Source of the DNA: Escherichia coli
Lineage (GTDB): Bacteria; Pseudomonadota; Gammaproteobacteria; Enterobacterales; Enterobacteriaceae
Length of the DNA stretch: 64,000 nt
Strand: one strand, 5' to 3'
NCBI RefSeq assembly: GCF_044324875.1
Contig: NZ_CP172186.1
This document shows positions 7,121-12,707 of the stretch, piece by piece. The position numbers were made by a program, and so were the translations under genes. Every line of letters begins with the position of its first letter. The first letter of the stretch is position 1. A model generated the notes under the pieces. The model made no database searches. It saw nothing but the letters and a program-made list of their open reading frames with translations, and was not told the origin of the DNA.

Positions 7121-7290
7121 TTTTACACCTTTCTGTTATTCTGCTTATTACGACCAGCAGACAGCAAATATTAAAAATAACGCGGCGGTAATGCGTATTC
7201 CGCTCTATTCGATCACGGATTGGCATCGAAGTCCGATCAGCGATTCGCATCCATTCGATCAACCGGGAACTTAACTTTTTCTACCGCTTT

Positions 7291-8046
7291 TTAACGCGTT
7301 TTTTCGCTGCTTTCCACTACCGGGGGATTTTTCCTCAGTGACTCTCCCTGAAGGACCACTCGGTGTGAGTTATGTACCAGTCTGTCCAGGATGGCATCTG
7401 CTGTTGTTGGGTTCTCCATCAGACCATGCCATTTATCTACCGGGAACTGGCTTACCACTATCGTGCTGCTTTGTCCGTAACGATCCTCTATGAGCTCCAG
7501 AAGGTCATTACACTGGGCGTTACTTAACTGTTCCAGCCCCAGATCGTCCAGGATTAGAACCTGTATTTTTTGCAACTGTTTCAGATATTTCAGCCAGCTG
7601 CCATCAACACGTCCCTGAGCCAGTTGTTCCAGTAATCGCCCGGTTCTACAGTACCGGACGCTGTGTTTCTGTCGACATGCCTGTTCGCCCAGCGCATTGG
7701 CTATCCAGCTCTTGCCACATCCTGTCGGACCGGTTATCAGCAGGTTTTTCCTGTGGGTTATGTAGTGGCCGTTCAGCAGTTCTCTCATCTGTTCAGCCCG
7801 CAGACCTCTTGAGGCCGGATAGCGCAGCCCTTCCGGTGTTGCCTGGTATTTCAGGCCGGCATTTTTTCTCAACCGTGCCACACGGCTGTTTTCCCTGCTC
7901 AGAAGCTCGTCATCAACCAGCAGCGTCAGCCTTTCCTCGAACGACAGTTCGTCGTAGGTCTGAGGCGTTTCCCGCTGCCGTATCAGGCTCCCGGCCATCG
8001 CCGGGAGTTTCAGTTGGGTCAGTTTGTTTAACAGGTTATCACTCAT
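7291..8046 (-). CDS. istB: IS21-family helper ATPase IstB
   Basis: Walker A GPTGCGKSW, Walker B VLILDDLG; start taken at MSDNLLNKL (track ORF 7291..8289 begins further upstream). Confidence 0.85.
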   Translation of the reverse strand: MSDNLLNKLTQLKLPAMAGSLIRQRETPQTYDELSFEERLTLLVDDELLSRENSRVARLRKNAGLKYQATPEGLRYPASRGLRAEQMRELLNGHYITHRKNLLITGPTGCGKSWIANALGEQACRQKHSVRYCRTGRLLEQLAQGRVDGSWLKYLKQLQKIQVLILDDLGLEQLSNAQCNDLLELIEDRYGQSSTIVVSQFPVDKWHGLMENPTTADAILDRLVHNSHRVVLQGESLRKNPPVVESSEKTR

Positions 8047-8062
8047 ACTGTTGTTCCTTCTG

Positions 8063-9598
8063 TCAGTGGTAGTAGCCCGGACCACGCAGGTTTTCATGCT
8101 CTGAAGCATATGCCGGATGTTGTTCGCCCTGGCGGGATAATGGAAGCTCCAGGTTCTCCCGATGGTGACGCAGCAGATTGTCGATAAAGCGTCTGTCAGG
8201 GGCGTTATAGTGCAGGGCAACGTAACAGGCCTTTTCCAGCCGTTCCGGGCCGTATTTTTTCTGAAGTGCCAGCAGCCCCAGAACTGCACGATAAGCCAGT
8301 TCCGGATGGGGTTTTGCCTTCAGCATGGATTCAACCACCCGGCCTGTGGACGGGCCCGTACGTTTTCCCTGCTCGATCAGGCGTTCCGGTGTCCATGTCC
8401 CGTGCTGCCGGTGGCGCTCTGGCATGTGAAGCGGATTGGTTGTGTGTTTATATTCATGTGTGCTGCGCGGATGTTGCGCCACACACTGCCCCTTGTGCCA
8501 GAGCTGTACCACCGACTGCCCCGCCTTCAGTGACAGACGCTGACCGACCAGTTCGTGTGGAACGGAGTACCAGTGACGGGCATATTCAACGTGGTAGTCA
8601 GGGCCAACCTTCACAGCTTTGTATTCCGTGTATTCATAAGGTGCCAGAGGCAGCGGAGAGAGTGCTGGCGCATCCAGTATGCGGAAGCGTTCTGCACGGG
8701 TTTGATTGCCGTACCCCTTCATTGGCCGGTTATTCATGTCTGTCAGTAACTCCCTAAGGCGCGCATTCAGCGCCCTGAGCGTGTGGAAGGTTTCATTACG
8801 GATGCGGGCAAGAAGCCATCGTTCAACGATGAGGACGCCGTTTTCTGCTTTTGGTTTATCTTTAGGTTTGCGTGGTCGGGCCGGGATGATAACCGTGCCA
8901 TAGTGCTCAGCCAGTGCCTGATAACTGTCGTTGATGACAGGCTCATATCGATCGGCCTTTTTCACTGCGCTTCTGAGGTTATCGGGGATGAGCAGCTTCG
9001 GTACGCCGCCCAGGAAGGTCAGGCAACGGCTGTGGGCATTTAACCATGACATCATGTCCTGACCTTCGCACGCTTCAACGTAGGTATAGTTGGACGCCCC
9101 CATTACGGCCACGAAGATTGCCACGCGGCGTATCTCACCGGTGTCCGGATTAATAACAGGAACCGTAGGACCACAGAAGTCGATAAAAAGCTTTTCGCCG
9201 GCACGATGCTCCTGGCGCATGGAGAGACGTCGCGTTTTTTTCCACTCCCGGTAGCAACGGCAGAAGTGCGAGTATCCCATCGCTTTGTTACCCGCCTGTG
9301 CCTTGTATTCCATCCACAACAGTTGCCGCGTCACACCTGGTTTTCTCATTTCCGTATCGAAGTACAACATGTCAGGCATTACAAGCTCTGATGCAAAGGT
9401 GTCTTTGGGCGGAAAAATGAGTTTCTCCAGCGTGTCATGGGATATATCAGCAGGTAATGGCCATGACAGAGAAGAGGCTTTGAAGCGGGCAAGAACCTCA
9501 AAAACGGTTGAGGCGCTGATGTGTAACGTCAGTCCGATACAACGGTTAGTCAGCTTCTTGTCGAACTTGAGCTGAAGGATCTTAAAACAGGTTTCCAT
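8063..9598 (-). CDS. istA: IS21-family transposase IstA
   Basis: N-terminal HTH, DDE-type core; start taken at METCFKILQ with RBS (track ORF extends to 9709). Confidence 0.85.
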   Translation of the reverse strand: METCFKILQLKFDKKLTNRCIGLTLHISASTVFEVLARFKASSLSWPLPADISHDTLEKLIFPPKDTFASELVMPDMLYFDTEMRKPGVTRQLLWMEYKAQAGNKAMGYSHFCRCYREWKKTRRLSMRQEHRAGEKLFIDFCGPTVPVINPDTGEIRRVAIFVAVMGASNYTYVEACEGQDMMSWLNAHSRCLTFLGGVPKLLIPDNLRSAVKKADRYEPVINDSYQALAEHYGTVIIPARPRKPKDKPKAENGVLIVERWLLARIRNETFHTLRALNARLRELLTDMNNRPMKGYGNQTRAERFRILDAPALSPLPLAPYEYTEYKAVKVGPDYHVEYARHWYSVPHELVGQRLSLKAGQSVVQLWHKGQCVAQHPRSTHEYKHTTNPLHMPERHRQHGTWTPERLIEQGKRTGPSTGRVVESMLKAKPHPELAYRAVLGLLALQKKYGPERLEKACYVALHYNAPDRRFIDNLLRHHRENLELPLSRQGEQHPAYASEHENLRGPGYYH

Positions 9599-9702
9599 AG
9601 TGCTCCTGGATTTTCTCTTTCTGGACATTGACGTCTCCACTGGTTTAAACACGGCAATGGAGACTGTGGTGAAAAGAGTTAATTCCCGGAGTGACTGGCA
9701 GG

Positions 9703-9830
9703 ATGCCAATCAATGATCGGAAGCATGCCAAATCGTGATCGATTGTGATGCCAAACTGTGATCGGAGATGGATGCCAAATCATGATCGATTCGAATGCCA
9801 AACTGCGATCGATTCAGATGCCATTTTGCA
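9703..9830. repeat. direct repeats ATGCCAAA(T/C)NNTGATCG (at least 5 copies) at IS21-family left terminus
   Basis: Read directly; spacing about 22-27 bp; typical multi-site termini of IS21-family elements. Confidence 0.8.
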
Positions 9831-9913: not shown

Positions 9914-10381
9914 TTATTTCTTATTCTGTTTTCTCCAGGTCCATGGTGGTACCGGATTTTTATCTGCCCATAATCCCCGCTTCAGGGCGCGGGCATCACG
10001 CTGGAGCGGCGGGAGAGTATAGTCATTATTGTAGTCCGGGTACACCCAGGCAGCGCCGTTACGGACCTGCCAGCGATTTGCTTCTGTGCCGTCAGCGGTA
10101 TAGACCCGGCCGAGAATACGGCCATACCTGTCTGTCTGCGCGTATTGCACGGTTACGGGCTTTCCGGCCACCAGGTCCTTCAGCTGAGTGGCTGACCAGC
10201 GTCCAAAGGGCTGTTTCTTTTCCGGTGCATCAATATTAGCCAGACGGACCCTGACAGGCTTTTTGTCCTGTAATATTTCCAGCGTATCACCATCAAGAAC
10301 GCGGATGACGTGCCCCTGAATCTGTGCGGCACAGAGAGAAGCGGAAAAAATAATGGTGAGTGAAAAGATATATTTTATCAT
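9914..10381 (-). CDS. nuc: secreted thermonuclease (SNase/micrococcal nuclease fold)
   Basis: 155 aa; signal peptide; motif VIRVLDGDTLEI...RLANIDAPE. Confidence 0.8.
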   Translation of the reverse strand: MIKYIFSLTIIFSASLCAAQIQGHVIRVLDGDTLEILQDKKPVRVRLANIDAPEKKQPFGRWSATQLKDLVAGKPVTVQYAQTDRYGRILGRVYTADGTEANRWQVRNGAAWVYPDYNNDYTLPPLQRDARALKRGLWADKNPVPPWTWRKQNKK

Positions 10382-10483
10382 TTCATCGTCTCCTTTTTAT
10401 TTATGAAAACAGGTGCAATTAATATTGCGAAATAATAACGTTCAGGTGTGTTTTTTTTGGCAGTGTGATACTTCACGCAGGGC

Positions 10484-11164
10484 ATGAATTCCAGTACGCT
10501 GATATCCGTGATGATACGGCAACAGATATCCGGTGACGGTATGCAGGAACATATTGATTATCAGATTGAGAAATATCAGTTCAGGGCCAGGAATGAGTCA
10601 CCGCGACTGATGCGCCAGTGGGAAGATGTCATGCGTGAATGCCGTGATACCGGAGCAGGAGCCAGGGAGCGGCTGCGGATTGCCTTACTTAATGTTGATT
10701 ATGTGACCAGTTTTGAACTGCCGTTTCGTCTGCTGTTAACCCGGACACCGCAGATGATTGACAGCGTGCGGCGGGAATGGCAGCTCAGCCAGAAAAAAGT
10801 CGTATTCAATGAGCGGCAGCGGGGATGTGTATACAGTCTGCAGAATGACTTATCCGGCGTGCCGGATAGCTTCAGTTACAGTCTTGCGACGCGAATACGG
10901 CGGGTGGACAGCTATGGCATGACGACGCGTTGTTTCACTGATATAGCCGGGCAGGTTAAAGCCCCGACAGCACGGCTGAAACTGGCGCTGGAAAGCGGGT
11001 TAATTGTCACCGCGCTGGATGGTCTGTTCTGGCTTGGTATTCAGCGTATTGCCGCAGATGTGCAGCGGCTGCGTCAGTCCGGAATGACAATCATCACCCG
11101 GGATGTTGAGGTCTCAGACTCGCTGACCGGAACCACACGGGTTGTTTCCGGGTACAGACTTTGA
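10484..11164 (+). CDS. hypothetical protein, possible C-terminal winged-helix DNA-binding domain
   Basis: 226-aa ORF; C-terminal LKLALESGLIVTALDGLFWLGIQRIAADVQRLRQSGMTI resembles an HTH; convergent with the small-gene cluster. Confidence 0.4.
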   Translation: MNSSTLISVMIRQQISGDGMQEHIDYQIEKYQFRARNESPRLMRQWEDVMRECRDTGAGARERLRIALLNVDYVTSFELPFRLLLTRTPQMIDSVRREWQLSQKKVVFNERQRGCVYSLQNDLSGVPDSFSYSLATRIRRVDSYGMTTRCFTDIAGQVKAPTARLKLALESGLIVTALDGLFWLGIQRIAADVQRLRQSGMTIITRDVEVSDSLTGTTRVVSGYRL

Positions 11165-11365
11165 TTTATGCAACAAAGTATCGCAGCGTCGAATATGAGC
11201 TATGGCCAGATTTTTGTTAATCGTGGTTGTTGCAACATGTAAGGCGAATGACCACACTATTCTGGTACGCTCGTAATCACGCTGAAATTCTGCTTCCTGT
11301 CCTGCCGTGATGAGTTCCGACCAGGACATACGGCGAAGTGTATGTCTGTCAGTAATATCCGTCAT
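11114..11365 (-). CDS. hypothetical small protein (83 aa)
   Basis: Third ORF of a tightly packed three-ORF cluster (4-bp overlap with upstream ORF). Confidence 0.35.
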   Translation of the reverse strand: MTDITDRHTLRRMSWSELITAGQEAEFQRDYERTRIVWSFALHVATTTINKNLAIAHIRRCDTLLHKSKSVPGNNPCGSGQRV

Positions 11366-11577
11366 GAGCTCTCAGCCTCCTCCTTCGTATTTCCGTCAGA
11401 AACACAAACGCCCCGCAGAGAAAATTCGCCAACATTCTCCTTTTTAATGGCGCGCAATGCATCGCGGCAGGCCCGTTCGGTATGAAAGGCCTGGCTGTGC
11501 ACCGCCAGTGTGGGCTGACGGGCATCACCGGAAGAGACATTAAAGGGCGATGAAAGCCAGAAAATCAGTAGCCACAT
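11362..11577 (-). CDS. hypothetical small secreted protein (71 aa) with signal peptide
   Basis: N-terminal hydrophobic MWLLIFWLSSPF; two Cys in mature part. Confidence 0.4.
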   Translation of the reverse strand: MWLLIFWLSSPFNVSSGDARQPTLAVHSQAFHTERACRDALRAIKKENVGEFSLRGVCVSDGNTKEEAESS

Positions 11578-11580
11578 GCG

Positions 11581-11964
11581 TCACACCTCGTCCTTTTTAT
11601 GCGGGTATCTGGACAGAATATTGAGCGCCTGTAATGGCGCTTCATGCATTTCACGGATACAACGGGCATCGGTGATATTTTCCCGGTAATGTGTGGTTTC
11701 CAGCATCATATGATGCATATGGAGCATCCGGGCCAGGGCTGCGCGGAGTTCTTCAATATGTTGTTCATGGGAATGCTGGCGGGGCTGTATCCGGCAGAGA
11801 GGGATAACCTCCACATCATCCGGGTGCGCGCGAAGCCACGCGTCAGTGACTGCAATGTCGTCAGTGTAAAACCATGTGCCGGATGTCCCGTTGGCCAGAA
11901 AACGCATTTTCCAGGCTTCTGGGGTGGCGGTTGTGTTGTTATCTTTCATGGTGCCACCACTCAT
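11581..11964 (-). CDS. hypothetical protein (about 122-127 aa), His-rich
   Basis: First ORF of three-ORF cluster; 3-bp gap to next ORF. Confidence 0.4.
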   Translation of the reverse strand: MSGGTMKDNNTTATPEAWKMRFLANGTSGTWFYTDDIAVTDAWLRAHPDDVEVIPLCRIQPRQHSHEQHIEELRAALARMLHMHHMMLETTHYRENITDARCIREMHEAPLQALNILSRYPHKKDEV

Positions 11965-12406
11965 TCAACAGGCTTAATGCTGTCCAGGCGCAGTCTGCTC
12001 AGACTGTCGTGGCTGCCACAGCGGCGTCCAGTGCTTTTGCTGTAGCACTCCTGCCCCCTGATACACCATGCCGTTGGCGTTTCGTAGAGGCTGACACGTC
12101 GGGTTTTATCTTTAATGATGAGAAGCCCGGTGTGAGTTTTTGTCTTTTTCATCGGTGGGGTACAAACGCAGAAATTTTGTTGTCATTACATCATCAGTTT
12201 TAGCCTGCAGAGACGCTGAAAAATCAGCGTTTTCAGACCCTGTTCAGGTTAGTGAATATTCTTGCCTGGCCTTTCGGCAATATCAATCCCCTGATGTGTG
12301 CACACGTAGTCACTTTCCGGCTTTATTTCTGTCCCTGACACAAAATACGTGGTGGCATGAAAAGGATTGTGGCGGACAGGAAAACGATTAGAATAGCGGC
12401 GGGCGC

Positions 12407-12700
12407 TTGAGGCTGTATGCCGAAAGCGTTTTGTGGACGGCATGTAGCAGAAAGCCCCAGGCGATTTTTTTATCAATCAACCCAGGGCCCACTGTAATGC
12501 CTAGACAACATTATAGTAGCCCGATGACGGCCGAAAGGCAATGGAGGGGCTGCGATGCCACAACGAACGTTTTTAATGATGTTAATCGTCGTCTGTGTGA
12601 CGATACTGTGTTTTGTCTGGATGGTGAGGGATTCGCTTTGCGGATTTCGTATCGAGCAGGGAAATACGGTGCTTGTGGCAACGTTAGCCTACGAAGTTAA
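12407..12700 (+). CDS. pndC: pndC-like (mok-equivalent) overlapping reading frame of pnd locus
   Basis: ORF overlaps pndA in another frame, as in hok/mok-type loci. Confidence 0.45.
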   Translation: MRLYAESVLWTACSRKPQAIFLSINPGPTVMPRQHYSSPMTAERQWRGCDATTNVFNDVNRRLCDDTVFCLDGEGFALRISYRAGKYGACGNVSLRS

Positions 12701-12707
12701 ACGTTAA
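12555..12707 (+). CDS. pndA: Hok/Gef-family type I toxin PndA (50 aa)
   Basis: Manual translation MPQRTFLMMLIVVCVTILCFVWMVRDSLCGFRIEQGNTVLVATLAYEVKR: single TM helix plus conserved RDSLC motif of Hok family. Confidence 0.85.
   Translation: MPQRTFLMMLIVVCVTILCFVWMVRDSLCGFRIEQGNTVLVATLAYEVKR

Follow-up and report, generated by a model that had tools for sequence, protein, structure and literature searches.

Two independent accessory units, one of them carrying a putative ANR-like small protein, meet in the trbA-excA slot of an IncB/O/K/Z plasmid of Escherichia coli

Do the small genes packed between nuc and the pnd locus of an Escherichia coli plasmid form one functional module with the gene on which they converge, or do they belong to different units that have come to lie side by side? 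The question is raised by a window of 64,000 nucleotides (nt), the whole stretch of DNA analysed here, in which three short minus-strand open reading frames (ORFs) converge, between positions 10484 and 11964, on a plus-strand gene whose product ends in a winged helix. A preliminary description, made from the sequence alone, had taken the four for a single compact module. We find that the region consists of two independent accessory units, and not of one four-gene module, a conclusion that follows from the way in which the two are arranged in related plasmids and on chromosomes. The fuller reading, in which these units meet in the variable trbA-excA slot of the plasmid and have regulator and ANR-like roles, is one that we hold with moderate confidence.

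The four ORFs lie where the preliminary description had placed them, and their packing is as it had reported. The minus-strand ORFs (11114..11365, 83 amino acids (aa); 11362..11577, 71 aa; 11581..11964, 127 aa) leave a gap of 3 nt between the 127- and 71-aa frames, and the 71- and 83-aa frames share the 4 nt ATGA; the 83-aa ORF overlaps the plus-strand ORF convergently by 51 bp, where about 50 had been given. The same-strand run goes on past 11964 with a 63-aa gene (11961..12152, minus strand) whose stop codon shares bases with the first ATG of the 127-aa ORF, and therefore the operon here is orf63-orf122-orf71-orf83 (orf122 is the 127-aa ORF, which PGAP starts at 11949 to give 122 aa). The small genes do behave as an operon, as had been proposed, and what had been missed is its first gene. 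They are a separate, translationally coupled unit of four genes, with ATGA overlaps and with Shine-Dalgarno sites inside the upstream genes. The scan for promoters and terminators gave nothing above shuffled expectation; a sigma-70-like site lies upstream of orf63, at 12286-12258, in the remnant of an 80-aa gene. Coding signatures were assessed with Nei-Gojobori counts against divergent homologues, in which the proportion of synonymous differences (pS) lies far above that of nonsynonymous differences (pN). The ratio of nonsynonymous to synonymous substitution rates (dN/dS) is 0.07-0.33 across all five genes, which indicates purifying selection, and all five ORFs are real genes.

The evidence that separates the four-gene cassette from the winged-helix gene comes from the relatives. 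In L005-L009 the order is nuc, the winged-helix gene, a DUF2569 gene (not called in L006), a gene for a sulfatase-type phosphoethanolamine transferase, and then the small genes, of 74/71/122(/63)/80 aa, followed by pnd. The segment that holds the DUF2569 and transferase genes, 2.59 kb long in L008 (5177-7766), is absent from the window, and the BLAST comparison and alignments with L008 place the junction of the two units at 11149..11189, as 41 nt that are unmatched in L008. In L010 a paralogous triad (121, 63 and 95 aa, with 68%, 84% and 49% identity) sits between nuc and trbA, on the other side of nuc, and the gap from the winged-helix gene to pnd is filled by DUF2569 and phosphoethanolamine transferase genes. 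Each unit is also found without the other. L003 and L004 have kept nuc and the winged-helix gene, and no triad was detected beside the latter in the stretches examined; in all, 2799 of the 5426 complete E. coli genomes have homologues of the winged-helix gene, which lie in SpLE1-type islands without the small-gene cassette. The cassette, for its part, lies without the winged-helix gene downstream of an iha-type TonB-dependent receptor in L021-L025, a paralogous cassette lies just downstream of SPATE (Peptidase_S6) autotransporter genes on the chromosomes of L026-L030, and plasmid pO111_3 (L011) has, likewise just downstream of a SPATE gene, genes like orf63 and, in truncated form, orf122. Since the units are 2.6 kb apart, relocated or solitary in relatives, their convergence is a junction, though a common one.

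The frequency of this junction weighs on the other side. The 2-kb stretch 10300-12300, which matches at 100% the E. coli plasmid pLH50-c-A (NZ_CP100501.1, typed IncK2/Z), is present in 356 of the 496 matching plasmid records, nearly all of them conjugative MPF_I plasmids of Escherichia and Shigella. The abutting arrangement is thus the commonest one, so that a secondary functional link through convergent transcription is possible. It may also be that the 2.6-kb difference was a loss here or a gain in the relatives, both being possible. We see no supporting sign that the 51-bp overlap is a regulatory design; it would have arisen from the absence here of the 2.6-kb segment with the DUF2569 and phosphoethanolamine transferase genes. 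Two observations on the surroundings of the cassette are recorded for themselves: a YdeO-like gene of the AraC family lies 5 kb from it in L021-L023, and in L004 a cassette with 122-aa and ANR-like genes, or parts of it, lies directly downstream of a SPATE gene.

What might the last gene of the cassette encode? The start of orf83 (11114..11365, minus strand) has a strong Shine-Dalgarno sequence, AAGGAGGAGG, and the ATGA coupling signal. About codons 1-62 (11365 to about 11180) make up its conserved core. Of the C-terminal tail that follows, the last 17 codons are read from the strand opposite to the end of the winged-helix gene. Alignment shows this tail not to be conserved: it differs among relatives, frameshifted versions included. 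The protein is 59% identical to that of L008 (dN/dS 0.33, pS 0.53, pN 0.25) and 49% identical to that of L010 (pS 0.86, pN 0.36), where its place after the 71-aa gene is kept in the paralogous cassette. It is the one ORF of the four to which the earlier label "unannotated" applies, as it is missing from the RefSeq annotation of pLH50-c-A and has no PLSDB feature under it in the sampled records of the window type; the others are annotated as hypothetical or helix-turn-helix proteins, and the annotation of the related plasmid pMS7163B includes all four, the 83-aa ORF among them. The public names of orf83 relatives (P0008, P0210, P0222 and others) are plainly wrong, e.g., "neurotensin receptor R8" or "FlgM", a flagellar biosynthesis protein.

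Judged from its sequence, the best assignment of orf83 is that of a divergent ANR-like small protein, with significant similarity to the ANR family but not a member of it. The NCBIfam model ANR_neg_reg (NF033650) is the sole family match for four members of the orf83 family and covers profile positions of about 3-52 of 54, with 16.2 bits for the orf83 of the window (E = 0.007) and 30.7, 27.8 and 21.7 bits for relatives (E = 2e-7 to 1e-4). Seven conserved residues make up the ANR signature: A10, E14, A22, W26, A29, W43 and R47 (PMC4983702). In a hand alignment (offset 12) the consensus of the orf83 family has the A, E, A, W and A of helices 1-2, five of the seven signature residues, and most members have the signature arginine; in the orf83 of the window, G22 and T34 replace two of the signature alanines. 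With 83 aa and a core of about 62 aa, orf83 is of a size that would suit an ANR, a protein of less than 10 kDa built of three alpha helices.

Several results count against this assignment. All ANR_neg_reg scores, from the 16.2 bits obtained here to the maximum of 30.7 in relatives, lie below the curated cut-off of 32 bits. The tryptophan of helix 3 (W43) is replaced by I, S or T in the orf83 family, and in Aar mutation of the corresponding W45 abolished activity. A profile search started from the orf83 family returned proteins of E. coli and Shigella alone and none of the canonical ANRs, nor did a tblastn search of the plasmid collection, at a limit of E <= 10, lead to them. Finally, a search of the window with a single seed returned no AraC-family gene.

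The other unit is the winged-helix gene. The plus-strand frame is open from 10484, as the preliminary description had it (10484..11164, 226 aa), but the real gene is shorter, running from an ATG at 10541 to 11164 and encoding 207 aa. This start is the true one because the 57 nt upstream of it are not conserved as coding sequence, their ATG and frame being lost in the aligned relatives, and because homologues across Enterobacterales are 207-213 aa long. The protein belongs to the ECs1377 family: it matches NF052300 (ECs1377_fam) with 300.6 bits (E = 3.4e-90; curated cut-off 190 bits) over profile positions 2-190 of 190, and also matches phrog_24243. The C-terminal winged helix that had been noticed is borne out by a Pfam HTH_39 match at residues 165-225 of the 226-aa ORF (E = 1e-4) and by the AlphaFold model of the 207-aa protein, which is confident in its C-terminal part (about residues 121-207). 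Identity is 89% to the homologue in L010 and 65% to that in L012, with dN/dS of 0.10-0.15. The winged helix makes it most likely that the protein is a DNA-binding regulator of local transcription. Against this stands the N-terminal part (about residues 11-117, short stretches excepted), which is of low confidence and could not be modelled. Foldseek against the PDB gave generic winged-helix matches alone, at E > 0.2, and no fold match for the N-terminal region, so that the word "regulator" comes solely from the winged helix. Just 5' of the true start, the stretch 10501-10532 has the repeat GATATCCG twice, at a spacing of 24 nt, together with an inverted repeat, GATATCCGT / ACAGATATC, and could be an operator; of these repeats, the second copy (ACAGATATC) alone is conserved in the IncK2/Z relatives.

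Are these genes needed by the plasmid? A published study by TraDIS, in which the insertion sites of transposons are sequenced, bears on this point, as it dissected pMS7163B (CP026855), an I-complex plasmid with an IncB/O backbone (PMC10286972). The layout there is like that of the window: genes 560, 570, 580 and c590 are 369, 216, 252 and c681 nt long, the last two overlap by 51 nt, and nuc follows (600, 468 nt), so that genes 550-610 appear to be the same as those of the window; the difference is that the 80-aa gene (243 nt) is intact there and a remnant here. Insertions in genes 560-590 were abundant (12.6-13.3, vs 0.98 for repA), and after surface conjugation the log fold changes (LogFC) of 560, 570, 580 and c590 were +2.08, +1.29, +1.62 and +2.94, with +2.20 for nuc and the highest value, +4.69, for the next gene, 610, beside trbA (PMC10286972, S1 Table A). 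Insertions in the winged-helix gene were thus enriched about 8-fold, at a false discovery rate of 3.5e-286 (PMC10286972, S1 Table A). The authors class these genes as uncharacterised "other genes", with impB as the sole named repressor, and discuss gene 610 alone, as a jackpot artefact (PMC10286972). Since insertions were abundant, and enriched rather than depleted, the genes of this related plasmid are dispensable for maintenance and for surface conjugation in vitro, and none is antitoxin-like. The positive LogFC could come from outward reading from the transposon toward the co-directional downstream trbABC, or from a true negative effect of the genes on transfer.

The remaining genes of the cassette have their own affinities. 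The first, orf63 (11961..12152, minus strand), is annotated by PGAP and falls in a phage-related family (phrog_1226, E = 7e-17); it is 73% identical to its pO111_3 homologue (dN/dS 0.12), and an identity with DUF4222 was considered for it and rejected. The product of orf71 (11362..11577, minus strand), whose start lies 6 nt downstream of a GAGGTG Shine-Dalgarno sequence, begins with a short hydrophobic stretch, contains two conserved cysteines and is also of a phage-related family (phrog_3766, E = 2.5e-11), with no Pfam match; it is 84% identical to the L010 paralogue (dN/dS 0.07). A signal peptide had been attributed to it and is not established, as the N-terminus has about 12 hydrophobic residues and no basic n-region. 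The product of orf122 (11581..11964, minus strand) is 68% identical to its paralogue in L010 (dN/dS 0.15) and belongs to a narrow family, with no match in Pfam, NCBIfam, PHROG or PADLOC. Its AlphaFold model (predicted local distance difference test, pLDDT, of 72) has a small beta-beta-alpha-beta N-terminal domain and a C-terminal helical hairpin, and fold searches returned generic fold matches only. The hairpin carries the motif ALxRMxxMHxLMMxKxNHxASFYDAxCxREMNEAPxQA (residues about 64-112; 11629-11775, minus strand), a stretch of about 50 aa that is common to some 20 clusters of small proteins, where it is fused to varied N-terminal domains, with weak PHROG links. Among 21 proteins bearing this motif, Pfam matched none, and NCBIfam has no coverage either. 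The 122-aa protein occurs in 504 plasmid records, vs 1993 for the adjacent pnd locus. Its only other full-length relative is P0171 (57% identity; 6001-6375 in L016/L017), on a contig that has the look of a virulence plasmid, with type III secretion export genes (SpaO/P/Q/R/S-like), three PerC-family genes, a phage antiterminator Q gene, ProQ/FinO and SSB; no homologue of orf71 or orf83 follows the P0171 gene.

How well do other explanations account for these data? That the four convergent genes are one module that serves, for example, phage defence, exclusion or stability, is regulated by the winged-helix protein and uses the overlap in its control, we regard as distinctly improbable. The abutting order with its 51-bp overlap, in 356 of 496 plasmid records and in pMS7163B, does speak for it, and so does the use of the slot for accessory functions in other I-complex plasmids. 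Yet the units lie 2.6 kb apart or across nuc in relatives, each is found without the other, and the orf83 tail that forms the overlap varies between close relatives, some of the versions being frameshifted. Two further results go against it: PADLOC-DB v2 has no family matching any of the five proteins at E <= 0.1, and TraDIS showed no maintenance or conjugation phenotype such as the module would need. The one Pfam match among the five proteins is HTH_39 in the winged-helix protein, and a sequence search of solved structures gave nothing meaningful. The missing PADLOC matches bear equally on the proposal that the cassette is phage-derived cargo for anti-phage activity, superinfection exclusion or another phage-host interaction. 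This draws on the PHROG families matched by orf63 and orf71, and on the recurrence of the C-terminal motif of orf122 in small proteins of which some are weakly linked to PHROGs. However, these PHROGs are of no known function, the DNA of the cassette has no match among 50,697 phage records, and its contexts are plasmids and pathogenicity islands, beside virulence genes, and not prophages; we consider this origin unlikely.

Two further proposals concern what the small ORFs are. Small, overlapping, translationally coupled genes next to pnd, itself a hok/sok-type locus, recall a toxin-antitoxin or addiction cassette that would complement pnd; but the insertions tolerated in genes 560, 570 and 580 of pMS7163B (12.6-13.2 vs 0.98 in repA) are unexpected for an antitoxin, and with no match to a toxin-antitoxin family in NCBIfam, Pfam or PADLOC this is very improbable. 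We give no more credit to the idea that the 83-aa ORF is a chance frame antisense to the end of the winged-helix gene. It would explain the missing RefSeq and PLSDB features and the wrong names of the relatives, but the antisense part comprises the last 17 codons only, and the core is 46-64% identical in divergent cassettes, where it holds the same place after the 71-aa gene, with pS well above pN. The strong Shine-Dalgarno sequence, the ATGA coupling and a consistent match to one NCBIfam model across the family also argue for a gene.

We therefore return to the two accessory units, for which the biochemical roles given here are those that we infer. The ECs1377-family protein, encoded divergently from the SNase-type nuclease gene, would bind DNA as a local regulator. 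The orf63-orf122-orf71-orf83 cassette moves between plasmids and pathogenicity islands, and orf83, by analogy with Aar and other ANRs, most likely binds a transcription factor (an activator of the AraC/XylS type, or H-NS) and not DNA, and would thereby tune the expression of host or plasmid genes. One can go further and propose a regulatory pair of the I-complex, in which orf83 damps virulence regulators of the AraC type or H-NS and the ECs1377 protein brakes transfer, though such a pair seems unlikely to us. Were the part on transfer true, a family found in about half of E. coli genomes would thereby gain its first function. IncB/O/K/Z plasmids are common in Shigella sonnei and in pathogenic E. 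coli. Through an ANR-like protein of its own, a resistance plasmid could influence the virulence or H-NS regulons of its Shigella and pathogenic E. coli hosts, and the presence of hha in the same slot of IncI1/I-gamma plasmids is in keeping with this idea. Whichever holds, a conserved gene, orf83, is missing from the RefSeq annotation of pLH50-c-A, and what is new in it is a divergent branch of a known kind, while the ECs1377 family is very widespread and uncharacterised, and its plasmid copy offers an easy genetic handle. Beyond orf83 and the ECs1377 family, the region is ordinary accessory DNA, dispensable for the core functions of the plasmid.

The plasmid in whose trbA-excA slot the units meet is of the IncB/O/K/Z group, within the I-complex, and not IncI1 proper. 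In the orientation of the window the gene order is trbC-trbB-trbA (minus strand), dqlB, a 58-aa gene, the SNase-type nuc (minus), the winged-helix gene (plus), the small genes (minus), pnd (plus), excA (minus) and traY (minus). The nuc gene (9914..10381, minus strand; a "thermonuclease family protein" in PGAP, with the Pfam SNase domain) is the divergent partner of the winged-helix gene, and the pair is retained in IncK2/Z relatives despite the differing cargo directly downstream. That the stretch is variable and holds accessory functions, as had been proposed, is confirmed by the contents of the slot in other I-complex plasmids, with finQ and hha in IncI1/I-gamma and elsewhere a TnsA-like gene or the DUF2569 and phosphoethanolamine transferase genes. 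Relative to pLH50-c-A, the window has an insertion between the 58-aa gene and nuc, an IS21-family element of 2.64 kb (7192-9830, istA ORF at 8063..9709 on the minus strand; the flanks overlap by about 5 bp), which stands between trbABC and the co-directional nuc and small genes. On the other side, the pnd locus is intact, with an Rfam sok match of 125.6 bits at 12401-12557 and the PndA ORF (50 aa, Hok/Gef family) at 12555..12707; this sok/pnd antisense RNA, which lies outside the studied genes, was the sole match of the Rfam scan. The 80-aa backbone gene adjoining pnd is intact in relatives (3884-4126 in L008) and has an apparent homologue of 83 aa, judged by eye, in R64. Alignment with L008 and L001 shows that its last 14 codons or so remain in the window (12249..12290, minus strand), the gene having been cut down here in a deletion of some 290 bp that shows short microhomology.

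How do these genes compare with known systems? The IncI1 reference R64 has in the same slot pnd, the 83-aa protein, dqlB, a 58-aa protein, a HEAT-repeat protein and excA, and none of the studied genes. As had been stated earlier, these are not tra, pil or known maintenance genes. Named IncI1 backbone genes, the finding that would have spoken against accessory DNA, were looked for and are not what these are; the candidate identity with IncI1 backbone genes was rejected on the absence of the studied genes from R64. The nuc of R64 is a gene of the PLD family near traJ, and the SNase-type nuc of the window is a different gene under a similar label. The ECs1377 family takes its name from a hypothetical protein encoded in SpLE1, an island of E. 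coli O157:H7 Sakai. The winged-helix protein is like that family in its full-length match, its 207 aa, its HTH_39 domain and about 65% identity to chromosomal members in Enterobacterales, and differs from it in setting, since it lies on a conjugative plasmid with a divergent SNase partner, whereas the chromosomal copies lie among backbone genes of islands (AlpA-like helix-turn-helix, CdiB/HecB-type). The ANR family includes Aar of enteroaggregative E. coli, Cnr of enterotoxigenic E. coli and Rnr of Citrobacter rodentium (PMC4038620, PMC4983702, PMC5570504). Like these, orf83 is small, matches ANR_neg_reg, belongs to a family whose consensus has the A/E/A/W/A signature, and sits in horizontally acquired DNA near virulence genes; unlike them, it scores below the cut-off, misses the helix-3 tryptophan and is the last gene of a four-gene operon rather than standalone. 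In BLASTP comparisons, the four small proteins of the window gave nothing significant against the 83- and 58-aa proteins of R64 or against the Hha of IncI-gamma, so that the parallel with Hha, a small helical protein that acts by binding H-NS, is positional and conceptual only. IncI-gamma/K1 plasmids have hha and finQ in the trbA-excA slot (9374-9583 in L018; 431-982 in L019). With hha in the same place as the putative ANR-like gene, a positional parallel and nothing more, the slot repeatedly hosts small modulators.

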